The notes below the pieces were generated by a model, which did not search any database, was not told the DNA's origin, and saw nothing but the letters and a program-made list of their open reading frames with translations. A stretch of 64,000 nucleotides of DNA from Octopus vulgaris (Eukaryota): the NCBI GenBank assembly GCA_951406725.2, contig OX597833.1, positions 60,822,001-60,886,000 on the forward strand, written 5' to 3'. Below, in pieces: positions 25,777-60,393 of this stretch (positions within the stretch are counted from its first letter, which is position 1; every line of letters starts with the position of its first letter). The position numbers and the translations under genes were made by a program.

Positions 25777-25961
25777 TTCCTAATAAAAAAAAAATGTCTA
25801 CTAAAAAAAGACCGTCAAAAAAACGAACACCAACACACGCACGACGTGCAATACTTTTTCTATATCTCCTGTTATGCTATTGCCTAATTTGTCTCAACAA
25901 AAATTATGTAATGGTACAGCACTAATTGTGCAGTGAGACAGCATTTGTAATTTCATTTCAC

Positions 25962-26175
25962 GGATCTTTACCTTTTGACCGACAGATTTCAAAAACAATT
26001 TTTTGTAACCAAACACTTTCAAACATCGGACACTGGTAGAATGTGTCAAATAAAATATCTTTTACTCTTAGCGTTTTTGAGAAATGCCTATATTTTGGAA
26101 GATATTTCACGTTAAAGTTGTATTTCGGTAATTTCAACCAATCAATGGCGTGTATTCAGCTGAATAAAATTTTCC
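25962..26175. mobile_element. Left arm only of a GGATC fold-back element
   Basis: Starts ggatctttaccttttgaccgacagat, the reverse complement of 23205-23230; truncated where the hammerhead-bearing unit begins. Confidence 0.75.
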
Positions 26176-26465
26176 AGAAAAGAAAGAAGCAATAGCATAA
26201 TTTCAGTAATTTCGCCTTATGCGCTGCAGTAAACTACTTAGTTTATGTACTATTGTATTATTTGTTATCACGTTCTTACAACGCTTAGCTTTACGGTGCA
26301 TGATCAGATCTCAAAACCTGTTGACTTAAGGCCTCTCTGAAACCAAAGGTAATCCCATAAACCGGCCTATGCTAACTTTTATATTATATATACTGCTCTA
26401 TAACTTAGTAGAGTGGGTATATCATCCGAAATGTATAGTAATTAAATGCCCATCACGGCTGGTTT

Positions 26466-26540
26466 TACCAATCGGTTTCGCGTAAAGAATACAATGGAGT
26501 GTTAGGTTACAAACCGATCATATAACTTTACGCTCATCAG
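26466..26540 (-). ncRNA. Hammerhead ribozyme-like motif (type I order) with perfect 8-bp stem II
   Basis: Minus strand CTGATGA-GCGTAAAG-(38 nt)-CTTTACGC-GAAA-CCGATTGG-TA; near-palindromic stem III; stem I poorly paired. Confidence 0.7.
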
Positions 26541-27699
26541 AGTTAGTTGATATGGAAGGGAACGTGGCGACTGCTCTCTATTGTCGGAGGTGGATTAGCA
26601 CAACCGGTCAACGGTTGCTGTGAAAAAGTGTGTGTGTGTGTGTGTGTGTGTGTGTTGTATCTTGGGAGAGTCATTCTGTTTTAATGCCTTATTAATAAAC
26701 ACACTCACTGGTTCAATTTCCTCTCATTTACTCTCTCTTTTACTCTTTTACTTGTTTCAGTCATTTGACTGCAGCCATGCTGGAGCACTGCCTTTAATCG
26801 AGCAACTCGACCCCGGGACTTATTCTTTTGTAAGCCCAGTACTTATTCTATCGGTCTGTTTTGCCGAACCGCTAAGTGACGGGGACATAAACACACCAGC
26901 ATCGGTTGTCAAGCAATGCTAGGGGGACAGACGCACAAACACACACACATACATACATATATACGACGGACTTCTTTCAGTTTCCGTCTACCAAATCCAC
27001 TCACAAGGCTTTGGTCGGCCCGAGGCTATAGTAGAAGACACTTGCCCAAGGTGCCACGCAGTGGGACTGAACCCGGAACCATGTGGCTGGTAAGCAAGCT
27101 ACTTACCACACAGCCACTCTCTCTTATCTTTTTTCTTTTTCTTGAATTTTCGTTGCTTCTTGCAACCTCTTCAATAGTTGTTGGCTCATATATATATACA
27201 CATACACCCATCTATGAACACATACACTCATACAGACACACATATGCTCATACATATATGCATACATGTGTGTGTGTGTGTGTATGTGCGTGCATGTACT
27301 TTTGCATATGCTATCCTGGTATCTAGTTCTCTGTTTTAAGTTAATCCGAGCGTTGATCTCCGTATGTACTCTCTCTCCACGCATGACCGAGATAAACCAA
27401 CAACCACCAAGCCTGTGTGTTGTATGTGGAGAGGCACTCAATGTACTAGAAATAGCAGTCAAATCTTGCTTAAAGTCACGTATTCCCGCCTTCGGTTCTG
27501 CTTTGACTCTATGCAGGGTGGAAAATGACAACGGGATGGTACGGATGGAGTATATATATATATATTTTTTTTATTATAGATCTGGTTCGTCGGGGCTGAA
27601 ATGGGGGCTAAACTACAACAAACTGACTACGACAACTAGCCGTGTTATACTGTTTTAAACAATTCTGTTGGGTGTTGTCGATACGGCGTTCAACTACAG

Positions 27700-45000: not shown

Positions 45001-46440
45001 ACCATCCTGCTACCACATTCAGTTCGTCCTTTATTTGTTCTCTCTTTCTTTCTCTCTTTCTCCTTCAGACCCCAACAGAAATCACCGGCTGAACCAGTCA
45101 GGCAGTTTAACTGAGGTGGCGGTGGTGGCGGCGGCGGTGACGGTGGTGGCGGTGATGATGGTGGTGGTGGTGGTGGAAGAGGAGAGACCCAATTAGAGTT
45201 TCTCTTAACTGGCAAGGCTCAGCTCAGTTCAATATAAGCACAACGTTTAATTCCCAACTCCCAAAGGAGAACTTGAGTTGAAAAATAAATAAATAAATAA
45301 ATAAATAAAATAAATAAATAAAAATATTTCTTCCAGAATACTCTTAAAAAAAAGATAAAATAAAGAAATAAAATCAAAGAAAGGAAAAAGGGGGAAAAAA
45401 GCCCTCCACCCCACCCGAAAGTAACGTTAATTTTTGCCTTTCTCAAATAACGTAAATAAAAAAGCAAGAATACTTTCTAAATGAACTATGGTTATTGGTT
45501 TAATCAACTGAATAAATGTAAAAATAACCCCACTTCGCTTGCCATGCAAATGAGGTCGTTTTTGGACGTGTAAAAGAAGATAAAAAAGAAAATATTTCTT
45601 CTGAATTTTTTTTTTTTTTTAAGTCCCCCTCCCATCCTAGTTTAGATAAGATTTTAAAATGAATCGAAATTAAAAAAGATGTTCATGAAATTATTTTCTT
45701 TAATGTTTATTAATATTTAGTCTTTTGTCTTTATCGAAAATATATCATATAAATATTTTTATGAAAATACACTCACAAACACACACACAAATTTTATGTG
45801 GATTAATATTAGCGTTTAAATGTAGAAGGCGGTGCTCCAGCATGGCCGCAGTCCAACAGGGCCTGGAAACTAAAAAAGAAAAATATTTATTAGCGATGAA
45901 CGAAGTACTTGTGGGTCCGTTATTGTTTACCTCCCTTTGTTCGAAGACTGACCCAGCCTGTCCCACCACTACACTAGTCCGTCATACATGCTTGACCCAC
46001 CCTAAAAGAAACTTCTCGTTCCACTGTTTCGCTTGGAAATGAAACTAAGTCGGACATTCGGACGTTAAACGACGATGATATATAAATCAAAGTGTACAGT
46101 ATTATACATCCATTACGGCCGATCTTACCCGTTGGTTTTGCGACAGAGATTCAACAGTGTTGGGTTAAAGTCTGATTTCGAAACCCTGCACTCATCAAAG
46201 GTAGCTGTTATGGAAACAACAACAACAATATATATATATATAATTATTATTTGAGGGAATAAAATCCAAACGTTATTCTACCTATCATATACGTTTTTAT
46301 TATCATTTTTTTGCAATTTACTTTATCATTGGCATTTTATTGGTATTTTAATTTTAATATTTCTATTTTATGTAATTTTCTAGATGGTGTAATTTAATTG
46401 TTCATTTTGAATTGATAAAAGGTGTTTTTTTTCTAATGCT

Positions 46441-46478
<38 letters not shown>

Positions 46479-46692
46479 TACATATATTTATGTGTGTGTA
46501 AGTCTATGCCTTTTGGGTTTTCTGGATTCTAAAACACCTTATATTATTGTTATTATTATACATATGTACATATATAATCTGAATTATATAGTATTAAGTA
46601 TCTATCACAGCTGGCCTTTCCAATCGGATTGGCACAAAAAATACAATCGAGTGTCAGGCAATTATATCAGAAGAATATATATATATATATAT

Positions 46693-55345: not shown

Positions 55346-56168
55346 AGAGAGCTTCAGCTTAAAAAGCTTCTTAAAGCAAGGCGGCCGCCCCACCACCCGA
55401 TACACGACGACGAAGACGAATACGAAGAAGAAGAGGAGTGAGTCGGCCAGCCAGTGAGAGCAGTGTCGGACAACAAAAGAGTCAGCCAGGAGGACTTGCA
55501 TGAGGAGGAGCATTCATGGTAAATGGTCGTTGTTTTAAGGCAGAGGCAATGCCTGTTCTACTGGACTGGGACAAAGTCCTGTTATTATTATTATTACTAC
55601 CATCACCACCATCGTCATCATCATCTTCATCATCCGACGTTCACCCCATCAACCATAATGTGAACAAAAAGAAAATATCAATAATATAAAGAAGACACAC
55701 ACACATATATATATATATATATACACTGCTGAAGAATTACAAATTTTTTTCAAAGTTCGGGCTTTTTCTTTGTGGCTGTCTTTCTTCCTTCCTTCATCCA
55801 TTTTTGTTTTCCTCTCTTCTTTCTCTCTGCTTTCTCTTTGTTGTCATCCTTTTTTTTTTGCTTCTTCTCTCTTCTCTCTCTCTCTCTCTCTCCCTGTTTT
55901 TCATATTGAATTCAATCACAGCCCACGTATCTTACTACATCCGACATCAACTCAGCACCCTTTAAATATTGTTTTGTGCTCAGCTTCTACAAAAAAAAAA
56001 AAAAACACTTCTGTTCATATATACACACACACACCACACACACATATACAACACATAAATATATGTATATATAATATACACACATACAAACAAATATATA
56101 TATATATCTCTTATGATAAATATATATATATATATATTGTACACACATATATAACATAACACAACACA

Positions 56169-58466
56169 ATGGGTAGCAGAACTGTTTGTTTTGTGTGTGG
56201 TAACCTCGGAGCTGATTCGGGTCGTATTTTGTATACGAAACCGCGCTTGGACAAGGGACCCTATTTCCCGTTTCTGGAGGACCACGAACCTCCCAAAGGA
56301 GCTCGACTGCTCGGTGCTGATGGCACAGTGGACAGCTGCAGAGTGTGCCACGCCTTCCTCACTCAGCAATGGGATACCTACGAACGTAATAAGACACCGA
56401 GCGTCAAGAGATTGTACTGGCTAAAACGTTCGGACAATGGCCAGTTCACTGGAGCGGAAATGCGACTACAAGGTGAGTACATCGCCCAAGTTATGGGCCT
56501 ACAATACAACCCAGGTTCTGTAGATTCTGGTTTTAATTCGTCCAGTCCCAATGTGACTAAATCCCGTTTGATTTCTTTAGCCGACCCTTACGCTGCCCTC
56601 GACACCCGAGGGGCCGCCGCTGATGTTGCTCTTGATTTATCGGTTCATAAAAACAATGGCCATAGTTCTTCTAGTAGTCGTGACTATCGTTCCAACAATA
56701 CGGACGAAGTGACCAATTTTGACCCGCATGCCAAAAGCAATAGTAGCAACGCCGCCACCACCGTCACTGATAAATGTCGTTCATCCTCCTCCTCATCATC
56801 ATCATCATCAGCCAAATATGTTTGCTTCACGTGCGGCGCCCTCCAACCGTGGATAACACGTCGGTTCATTTTCGCCTTCAGACAACCTTCGGGTGACCCG
56901 TATTTTCCCTTTTTGACCCGGTTCAGTACCCGAGCGGGCGCAGCACCCCTTTCCGACAAAGGCATCGCCGCCGTCTGCAACATATGCAGACGGACCCTTT
57001 ATCAACAATGGAAAGACCAAGAGATGGCCAACATTAGCATCGAAAACAGAACTTATAGAATCAACAAGGAGAAATATCCCGACACGAAAGACAATATCTG
57101 TATCAGTAGTAGTAGTATTAATGCAGGTGGTAGTAGTAGTAGTAGCAATAGTAGTCATGTCAGTGAAAAAACTTTGTCAGGCAGCAACACCACCACCACA
57201 ACTACTAGCAGTACAGCCAACAAAGAGATATGTTATCTGTGTGGTCAATTTATGTCACATTCTTCATCCCGCCTCCTGCATACGCTGACCAAAGACAGTA
57301 GGTCAAATATGATGCATTTCCCATTCATTAGAGACCTGCCCCGGCCAGAAGGAGCACATCCTCTAAATCCCGACGGCACAGTTATAGCTTGTCGTGTATG
57401 TGTTGACCACCTTGCTGCCCAGTGGCACATGTACGAGAGTCAGGGTGTCAAACTCTCCCAGAGACAGTTCACGCTTCCAATAAACCTCAACAGAGCTACT
57501 TATACATATCAGTCCAGTGATTCTTCCAGTTTCCCCACGTCTGAAGGGGACGTGAGTCAGCCGTTAAACATTCAAATCACCAGTGGTAGTCCTGTTCCCA
57601 CAGTGCCGACGGGCTCTCAGGGACTTCTTGCCATAGCCACTCCAATAACTTCTTCGTCCACTGCCCACAATAACGGCGAGGTTAGCAACCGTTCCAATGT
57701 TTCATCGGTGTACAGTAACCAGTTTCCGTCCTCCTCCTCTTCTACAATTGATGCCAGAAGAGTTCCTGTTGACATGAAACCGAATTTAGCTGCCCTTGAC
57801 AACAGCCTTAATATCAACAACAACAACAACAACAGTAGTAGTAGCAACACTATTACAGCCGCAACAATACCGCATCCTTTGCAATGTGTTAGTAGTTTGC
57901 CGAAAAAAGTCTGTTTTCTGTGTGGAGAAAGCTGTCTTGTTGCCAACATGCATGTCTTGTGTTCTTATCCCGCCAGACACGATGCTAAAGTTCCAAATGG
58001 ACAGACCAACCCATTTTTCCCATTCTTAGCCAATCGTGACCCTGCTCAAGGTGCTGAGACCATGAGTGATGAAGGAACAGTGATGTCCTGTCAATATTGT
58101 TACCACATGCTATTAAAACAGTGGAAAGATTATGAAAACTGTAAAACCCCAGGGACCAGTAACCGATGGTTAAGAAAATATGTTCTCAAGAATTTCACTT
58201 GTTACGTTTGCAGTAGAACGGCCGAGCGGAAAAAGATCTGTACTTTACAAGTTCCCAAGTTTCCTTTCCTCAAAGATCACAAAGTACCCCAGGGTGCACT
58301 GGTGATGGATAGCGGAGAGAGTGTTGTTGTCTGCAAAGGATGCTCTCGTAGTTTGCACCGACAATTCACTGAATTTGAGCGAATGGGTCTTCGTCTAGAA
58401 CTACGGAAATACAACTGGATTCAGCCACCTGGTGGCGATGACTCTATGGATGAACAACATAGTCAG
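56169..58466 (+). CDS. GSE1: First large coding exon of a Plexus/GSE1-like nuclear protein with five Cys-rich repeat modules; gene continues beyond the window
   Basis: 766 open codons, good Kozak (acaATGG), donor CAG|gtaaga at 58467. Five repeats of C-x2-C...FPF[LI]...GA...C-x2-C...Q[WF], recalled from Drosophila Plexus and invertebrate GSE1-like proteins. Family name from memory; the ORF-track extension to 58667 is intron read-through. Confidence 0.85.
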
Positions 58467-60393
58467 GTAAGAAAACTTTTTAACATGTTTTTTTTCTCTG
58501 TAGAAGAAAACTTTTGTCTTTGTTTTTTTTTGGTGTTTTCAGTTTTTCAGCATCACTATAAGTCACTTTGGAGGATCATATTTTTCCTAAATGACACATT
58601 TTCTCAAGTACACTGTTTAAAGAATATTGAGTACTACTTCTGTTGTGCTGGCACCACTGATGGCTAATTGAGACCAGGATGGACAATTGACCTGTTAATT
58701 CCAAGCAGAGTGTACAAGTACCAAATTGGATTTGAACGCGAGTGTCAAATATGAGTGATTGATGGTCAATCTCTATGGAACCATTGTTAATATAAACTTT
58801 AAAATGTATTTGAAATGTTTTTTTTGAAGGTAGAATTATTGCCCAGCTTGTTTTCTACTATCAAAACTAGTTGATGTCAATTATATTTTGACTGATCTCA
58901 AACTTCGAAGACAGAAAAACTAACACGCATCTCGTTTACGTTAGCAAAACATTTTTTGTTCTTTCATGAATGAAAAACAACAATGAATGTAGACTGGCTT
59001 CATTCATAGGTTTAACAAGAGACATCATGGGATTCTATGTTGAATGTTTGATATGTATCGGGGAAGGCGGGAGGTTTGCCAGGATTGGAAAGTGGGGTCA
59101 TACAAATTGCCATGTTTAACGAAAGTAGATGCTTTTAAACTTGTCCAACACCATGGTGAAGAAAAAAATCATATGGATGTGATCCCTATTTTCTATTCTT
59201 GTTTAATTAAGGTGGGTAGGGCAAAAATGTTACTAATACTGTGGGACGAGGAAACTGCTATTAGTTTCAAAATAACTGTTATAGGTGATGTTTTTGAAAA
59301 GGGAATCCCTCTCATTCTTGTCACACAATTCCATTTCCTCTCCTTTATAAATCTGAGACATTGTGCTAATAATAATAATAATAATAATAATATTTCTGAT
59401 TTAGACACAAAGCCTGCAATTTTTTAGAGAGACAAGATTAGTTGGTACTATCATCCTCAGTACATGACTAGTACTTTGTTATATTGATCTCAGAGGGATG
59501 AAAAGCAAAGTTGATCTCATTACGAAGAGTGTTGGAAAAAAATACTACAAAGCAATTTTTTTCTGATGCTCAACCAGTTCTAATAATAATAATAGTAATA
59601 ATAACAATAAATATTTCTAATTTTGGCTTATTGCTTTTAATTTTAAGGGAGACGGTTAGTTGATGACAGTGATTTCAGTACTTGACTGGTACTTGTTTTA
59701 TCAGCCCTCGAAAGGATGAAAAGCAAAGTCAACCTCAGTAGAATTTGAACTCAGAATGTAATGTATTAGAAGAAATACTGCAAAGCATTTTCCCAATGCT
59801 CTGACATTTCTGCCAGCTCGCCACCTAGTAATAATAATAATGATGATTTTGGATCGAAATCCTCCAAGTCAGCTTTGCTTTTCATAACTGTAAAGTTGAT
59901 GAAACAAGTACCAGTAATGTTACAGGGATTATTTAGTAGGTACTCACCCATATTGTTCTGTAATGTCCTCTCTTCCATTGCCCTTGTTGTAAGAAGAGAT
60001 TACCCCATCCCCCTTTTATTTTTTAAGATTCCTGTTCATGAAATGTTCTCATGTTTTATGTATGAATCTGTATCATTCATTCTATTGAAGTTATGGTGTC
60101 CTAAAATACCAGATCCTACAGTCTTTTTACCATTGCAATGATCTCAGTTCTCATCCTTTAAGGCCTGTCTTCCAAGCTTGCATCAGTTGGCGGGCTCAAC
60201 AGGACTCAATAAGCTGGATGTGTGTGTTGATCCCCAATATCCGCTTTGGCATGTTCACTACAGCTGTATGCCCTTCCTAATGCCATCCACTTTACAGAGT
60301 GATCTGGGTCCCAGCCCTTTTTGACAAATCAATAGTCTTCCATGACCCTCCACACTTTTCTTCTATTTTTTTGTTTGTAGCAAATGTTGTGAA

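Follow-up and report, generated by a model that had tools for sequence, protein, structure and literature searches.

The question raised by this locus, which lies in a 64,000-nucleotide stretch of Octopus vulgaris DNA (hereafter the window), is what kind of element left a hammerhead motif on the minus strand and whether that motif can still cleave. The hammerhead core spans 26540-26466 and starts with the catalytic CUGAUGA (26540-26534). It is followed by a perfect 8-bp helix II formed between GCGUAAAG (26533-26526) and CUUUACGC (26487-26480), where the G10.1-C11.1 pair is present and the helix (26533-26480) closes a 38-nt insert that is predicted to lengthen the hairpin. GAAA at 26479-26476 is then followed by ACCGAUUGGU (26476-26467) and a GUA triplet, after which the cut is predicted to fall between 26466 and 26465. 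Apart from the insert, these parts had been reported in an earlier note on this DNA and all were found again. The segment containing GAAA, helix III and GUA (26479-26466) was also said to hold a palindrome capable of pairing in a dimer, and the calculated energies agree with this: the monomer would form 3 bp with a GAUU loop at -0.9 kcal/mol while the 10-bp duplex of a dimer is predicted at -12.4 kcal/mol.

When the window was scanned with our own hammerhead descriptor, only this motif and one poor 4-bp candidate were found, and cores with a helix II of at least 8 bp occurred in none of 200 dinucleotide shuffles of the window. The earlier note had proposed a comparison with Rfam, which gave no hammerhead match at E up to 5 or 10 for three stretches, including a better copy from elsewhere in the genome.

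The motif had been assigned to a solitary unit of about 540 bp. A genome search with 26176-26625 as the query gave 41 other matches among the 40 scored of 2077 candidates, where no match extended past query positions 1-238 and most covered 1-208 or 1-219, corresponding to about 26630-26407. Only about 220 nt of the claimed unit is therefore common to genomic copies and the remainder consists of four other repeats. The shared part (26630-26407, minus strand; hereafter the window copy) is 82-90% identical to genomic copies over this span only, belongs to subfamily A of a family that fits the Hydra-type Penelope-like elements (PLEs), and appears as a 5'-truncated 3' end (pLTR region) extending about 11 nt beyond the short terminus at 26418 into an optional tail. 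A (CA)n/(TG)n microsatellite, read from the sequence, lies at the 5' truncation point (26629-26656).

The repeats on both sides account for the remaining claims about the unit. On the right, 26655-26732 (minus strand) belongs to a second family, hammerhead-like and PLE-like, which is represented by its 3' tail with the core absent, and an abundant interspersed repeat with many copies in the window follows at 26736-27119, which we take to be SINE-like. On the left, a third hammerhead-bearing PLE-like family is represented by its 3' half with GAAA, helix III, GUA, helix I and tail (26338-26408, plus strand) and by the 5' half of an inverted copy with helix I, core and a helix II arm (26283-26345, minus strand). 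Beyond it, a fragment at 26168-26266 comes from the interior of an unrelated repeat whose ends read CAGTG...CACTG and which is presumably a hAT-like MITE; next to it is one arm of a MITE with inverted arms of about 210 bp (25961-26170). It is the DNA-transposon-like fragment that truncates this arm at about 26170; the hammerhead element, whose end at 26407 is 237 nt distant, is not responsible. A flanking target-site duplication was considered and rejected. The left 7-mer (26169-26175) reads ATTTTCC and the right one (26715-26721) AATTTCC, so they are not identical, and the former is the junction between the MITE arm and another repeat while the latter lies inside the repeat that spans 26655-26732.

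Parts of three hammerhead-bearing families were thus found within 450 bp, and hammerhead PLE-type elements pile up on one another here. The third family (26283-26408; L272:565-670, L284-L303) shows a textbook type I hammerhead pattern with a 5-bp helix I (GGGAU/AUCCC), a long helix II and a palindromic helix III. It gave 1598 first-look candidates, has Hydra-like ORF remnants upstream in six loci (L292, L293, L294, L298, L299 and L301), and is a better substrate for cleavage assays than the family of the window copy. In the second family (26655-26732; L267-L271, L274-L283) the core is mostly UUGAAGA and once CUGAAGA, helix II has 5 bp, helix III is minimal and inverted pairs are frequent; an endonuclease remnant was observed in L271. 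Elsewhere in the window, an open frame of 835 aa on the plus strand (56160-58667) encodes repeats of the unit C-x-x-C ... PYFPFL ... C-x-x-C; it gave no Pfam match and is likely to be a real exon.

We next consider how well the ribozyme is conserved in the family. After 19 partial matches of 167 were removed, 132 full copies were aligned and these fall into subfamilies A (60 copies), C (6), B1 (25) and B2 (41). The subfamily majorities differ at 25 of the 121 columns but at none of the 22 columns of the core and helix III (P=0.003). Loss of the core among copies had been named beforehand as the result that would count against the ribozyme; the core is instead invariant in the four majorities. 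Helix II is kept at 8 bp in all subfamilies, with a bulged A added in B, and its pairs were observed to switch across the subfamilies between U-A, U-G and C-G (pair 4) and between A-U and G-C (pairs 6 and 7). Helix I has 2 bp next to the core, an internal loop, 5-6 bp and then 4-5 bp more, and one of its pairs changes from U-A to U-G in B2. Every majority forms all the named pairs of a type I hammerhead with its core, three helices and NUH site. Of the two stems for which a covariation test had been proposed, helix II is compensated, and helix I is interrupted with a core-proximal part of only 2 bp.

In 30 copies hand-picked across the subfamilies, the named structure pairs in 88.6% of cells as compared with 22-49% in slid controls; these copies are related sequences and the high pairing therefore reflects few events, with the compensatory changes amounting to about three. 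RNAalifold on 30 raw copies did not recover helix II or the proximal part of helix I. The loss of helix II is likely due to CpG decay and to a one-base register shift between subfamilies. The 2 bp of core-proximal helix I have a predicted pairing probability of at most 0.04 in every majority sequence, because the helix slips onto the core in A and B1. Taken as a series, the subfamilies show selection on the ribozyme in the parent elements.

Could core-like words have arisen by chance in a repeat where ribozyme function was never present? The missing Rfam match and the 2-bp proximal helix I are what such a repeat would give, as is the low share of intact cores, found in only 29 of 110 copies and in four of 27 copies selected by protein. 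We consider this explanation highly improbable. Cores of this kind did not appear in the shuffles, the core is invariant and helix II compensated between subfamilies, and the position and strand match those of the hammerheads in all the listed Hydra PLEs, as far as the published rows go. Furthermore, the loss of cores in individual copies is largely a matter of CpG decay.

In the window copy, helix I is reduced to 1 bp, the same value as reported earlier. Three G-to-A changes relative to the subfamily majority each break a helix I pair: two are in the 5' strand (26556-26541), at 26548 and 26547, and the third, at 26464 in the 3' strand (26465-26450), breaks the second core-proximal pair. The active fold is predicted to cost 9.7 kcal/mol over the minimum free energy, as compared with about 2 kcal/mol in majority A. 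Since these substitutions ruin helix I in the predicted fold, the hammerhead of the window copy is likely dead, in line with the earlier suspicion of inactivity.

Some runs that we guess to be RNA data touch these copies. None of their listed pieces spans the window copy's own junctions, and X6, a run outside this set, bridges 26387-26479; neither result bears on expression or cleavage. Another copy (L008:1514-1661) is trimmed almost exactly to the ribozyme and the short terminus. In three runs (X1, X2 and X5) it is embedded, with identical flanks, in longer contigs that cross the cut site unbroken.

The possibility that the host has co-opted copies, perhaps including this one, as working ribozymes in its transcripts was weighed against the same data. 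Core columns carry somewhat fewer mutations than columns matched by base, at 4.3% against 6.8% in 110 copies (22 pattern-selected copies left out), a comparison that is biased by the search seeds and not significant in subfamily B (P=0.13), and at 7.4% against 10.3% (P=0.044) in 27 protein-selected copies (five low-coverage ones of 32 left out), where partial copies inflate the background. Selection on the core after insertion was not accepted as a result, the signal being weak and confounded. The presence of one other copy in longer contigs of three such runs would also suit co-option, but the contig crosses the cut site unbroken, and helix I of the window copy is broken at three places. Co-option is, in our estimate, less probable still than an origin by chance.

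The nature of the parent element was read from the protein remnants. Upstream of the hammerhead region, family copies have about 600 nt of non-coding sequence and, beyond it, a broken ORF. As an example, a 203-aa frame with CSCRGNTIC and C-x-x-C..E motifs was found upstream in locus L008, and pieces of reverse transcriptase (RT; FDIVDFYP, YRDD) lie further upstream in L059, L069 and L076. A search with the 203-aa piece returned old broken relatives and also a younger family, about 40% identical, whose open frames reach 717 aa. When aligned to the 717-aa ORF, the old copies show RT pieces followed by the endonuclease in collinear order, 33-60% identical to the intact sister ORF. Among the 59 loci chosen by protein alone, the hammerhead region was found downstream on the same strand in 32, at a median of 638 nt, and no same-strand hammerhead was found in the other 27, where 1.5-2.9 kb per locus was covered. 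The order of an EN+ PLE ORF, with RT and then a C-terminal GIY-YIG-type endonuclease (domains named by their motifs), is thus present in family copies, though not in the window copy.

The motifs that occur in the 16 loci examined are CxCX5C (11 loci), CxxC..E (10), CxH (7) and YxDD (3). The Hydra clade is defined by a CxCX5C linker and by CxxC and CxH around conserved E and N (PMC8557442). The intact 717-aa sister ORF, P0002, also has RWK and DKT; the region of these two motifs is lost in the family copies examined, so that both are known here from P0002 only. Pfam searches with P0001 and P0002 and a PDB search with P0002 gave nothing useful. The (TA)n bias and the 3'-end hammerhead of the Hydra clade were both observed, and the layout of this hammerhead is unlike that in the published rows. 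Judged by motifs and by-eye comparison, the family fits a Hydra-clade PLE. Of the two candidates put forward earlier, a Penelope-like retroelement with a hammerhead agrees with the RT and endonuclease remnants upstream of copies. The view that the element is of an unrecognised kind is not supported, as it fits the Hydra clade, of which an octopus member with a hammerhead is already published (PMC8557442).

Among the family copies found, none is full-length or intact and none has an upstream pLTR; direct pLTRs were seen only in the sister family (L063, L064). This young Hydra-type family (L063-L067, P0002) has near-identical intact 717-aa ORFs, an upstream pLTR and two 3' ends. Its 3' UTR contains a hammerhead-like motif with a CCGAAGA core (U4 to C), a 4-bp helix II with an extra U and a 6-bp helix I, and a U4C core in a possibly active element is worth attention.

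The genomic footprint is in keeping with this assignment. The 118 loci compared, each about 3 kb long, contain 26 adjacent pairs of copies, of which 25 are inverted and tail-out. The 3' ends cluster at about +122 and at +187 to +205 from the core, about 65 nt apart; many inverted pairs carry the short end on one arm and the long end on the other. Inverted pairs and two 3' ends are traits described for PLEs. Most of the 3' ends listed are followed by (TA)n or (CA)n. The window itself contains two more decayed minus-strand copies, one of B2 (46080-46215) and a partial one (46571-46658), which lie 380 nt apart. An exact 22-mer of the family occurs 31 times in the genome and each genome search gave 1000-2100 first-look candidates, from which we put the copy number at somewhere between hundreds and a few thousand. 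The best-scoring copies are on average 92% (A) and 87% (B) identical to the majority of their own group, and on the scale quoted in PMC13282606 this would place the family, as a rough inference, at about 25 million years or more.

The other earlier candidate was a non-LTR retrozyme: such elements encode no protein, and their tandem monomers, each a few hundred bases long, are cut into single units and closed into circles. A type I hammerhead with a palindromic helix III is shared with such elements, and many family copies are short and lack an ORF. The 5' ends, however, are ragged and reach into the RT-endonuclease ORF, the single direct pair among the 26 is a partial copy 380 nt away, and head-to-tail monomers of 150-450 nt without an ORF, which the loci would have shown, were not seen. 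Moreover, only one of the 60 loci found with post-cut sequence starts within 2 nt of the cut site. A retrozyme is the least probable of all the alternatives weighed here. A pile-up of 5' ends at the cut site was rejected on the same 60 loci, with one end at -2, three at -7 and one at +5. Four of them (L219, L229, L241 and L246) have a copy whose first base falls within the helix III palindrome or immediately behind it, and two of these starts are at inversion junctions.

The segment 26630-26407 is hence very probably the 5'-truncated, decayed 3' end of a PLE that fits the Hydra clade, whose hammerhead likely cut the parent RNA and is predicted to be dead here. The linkage to the ORF, the two fixed 3' ends, the inverted tail-out pairs, the microsatellite flanks and the conserved fold were observed. 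The steps of insertion are modelled on an anole PLE, where an internal start 3' of the ribozyme and early termination were described in vitro, and where the hammerhead requires protein for cleavage and insertion can proceed without the hammerhead (PMC11167929). By this analogy, the parent RNP would nick AT-rich or microsatellite DNA, and target-primed reverse transcription would start immediately 3' of the ribozyme, at either of two internal sites. For the window copy, the far ('tail') site may have been used, with reverse transcription stopping early at the (CA)n tract. Insertion would proceed mostly from uncleaved RNA, and the single locus in 60 that begins within 2 nt of the cut site is consistent with such a model. 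The 3' end may have been trimmed later by insertions and by a microhomology junction with the tail of the third family.

Metazoan PLE hammerheads are weak and favour dimers, and the same weakness and dimer preference are expected by analogy for this family; the parent ribozyme would likely need a second copy, through the helix III palindrome, or the element's protein. A CUCU/AGA sequence in all four subfamilies allows a two-base slip of the 2-bp proximal helix I, sequestering C3 and U4, and this slipped register is the predicted lowest-energy fold of majorities A and B1. A rather improbable but more novel reading is that the slipped register is a conserved off-state, from which pairing into a dimer or binding of the element's protein would release the ribozyme; the long helix II hairpin would then be the handle for that protein. 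If so, the reason for the weakness of PLE hammerheads and for their dependence on protein could be examined directly in this family.

No description of the family was found in the literature, and it may be present as an unnamed Penelope in Repbase, Dfam or the octopus repeat library; the main text of the octopus repeat annotation (PMC13282606) does not mention hammerheads or ribozymes in the part available. The family and its hammerhead layout, in which helix I has 2 bp and is interrupted and helix II is long, are apparently new within a known clade. Since Hydra-type PLEs are a known group and a mosaic of other repeats makes up the remainder of the 540 bases, this is a new family of a familiar kind of element. 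Its significance is modest. The octopus Hydra-type PLEs are extended by a family that seems not to have been described and whose hammerhead layout Rfam misses, and this family supplies natural variants for assays on the role of PLE hammerheads; the window copy itself is a fossil.

With regard to known systems, metazoan non-LTR retrozymes share the type I hammerhead and dimer-capable helix III with this family and are described as head-to-tail arrays of 150-450-nt monomers (PMC7229834; bioRxiv 10.64898/2026.07.22.740005). The present family differs in having ORF remnants in place of such tandem monomers and in being old and decayed. The Schistosoma Cercyon elements have a similarly long helix II of 7-8 bp and the Drosophila virilis Penelope a 2-bp helix I (Cervera and de la Pena 2014, PMC4209133). 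According to the same source, both have a palindromic helix III and occur mostly as single truncated copies with some close opposite-strand pairs, as observed here. The octopus family differs from both as described there: A9 is directly followed by G10.1, helix III is a genuine 3-bp stem closed by a tetraloop, and the helix II hairpin is far longer. The Poseidon PLE of Anolis, PAc, resembles the family in its two 3' termini, optional tail and AT-rich targets, and no molecules were mapped at its cut site in the data described (PMC11167929). It belongs to a different clade, its tail and ribozyme overlap the ORF start, and its ribozyme was assayed as protein-assisted, whereas the tail here is about 65 nt and cleavage is predicted only.

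The closest comparison is with Hydra-1_Obim, an octopus Hydra PLE with its own hammerhead that is listed in the supplement of Craig et al. 2021 (PMC8557442). As far as that listing describes them, Hydra-1_Obim and its clade share with the family the order of RT and C-terminal endonuclease, the CxCX5C, CxxC and CxH motifs, insertion at (TA)n and, near the 3' end, a type I hammerhead on the sense strand whose helix III is palindromic. The hammerhead of Hydra-1_Obim has a 6-bp helix I, a 7-bp helix II and an 8-nt loop, and the listed Hydra hammerheads have a contiguous helix I of 3-7 bp (one is interrupted) and a loop 2 of 3-10 nt. In the family, helix I is instead 2 bp, an internal loop and 5 bp, helix II carries the 38-nt structured insert, and the 3' UTR has about 600 nt ahead of the ribozyme, unlike the listed elements. 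The RT pieces of Hydra-1_Obim and of the family are very alike by eye, but the linker and endonuclease sequences differ and the hammerhead sequences are unrelated, and we therefore regard the octopus elements described here as a separate family.
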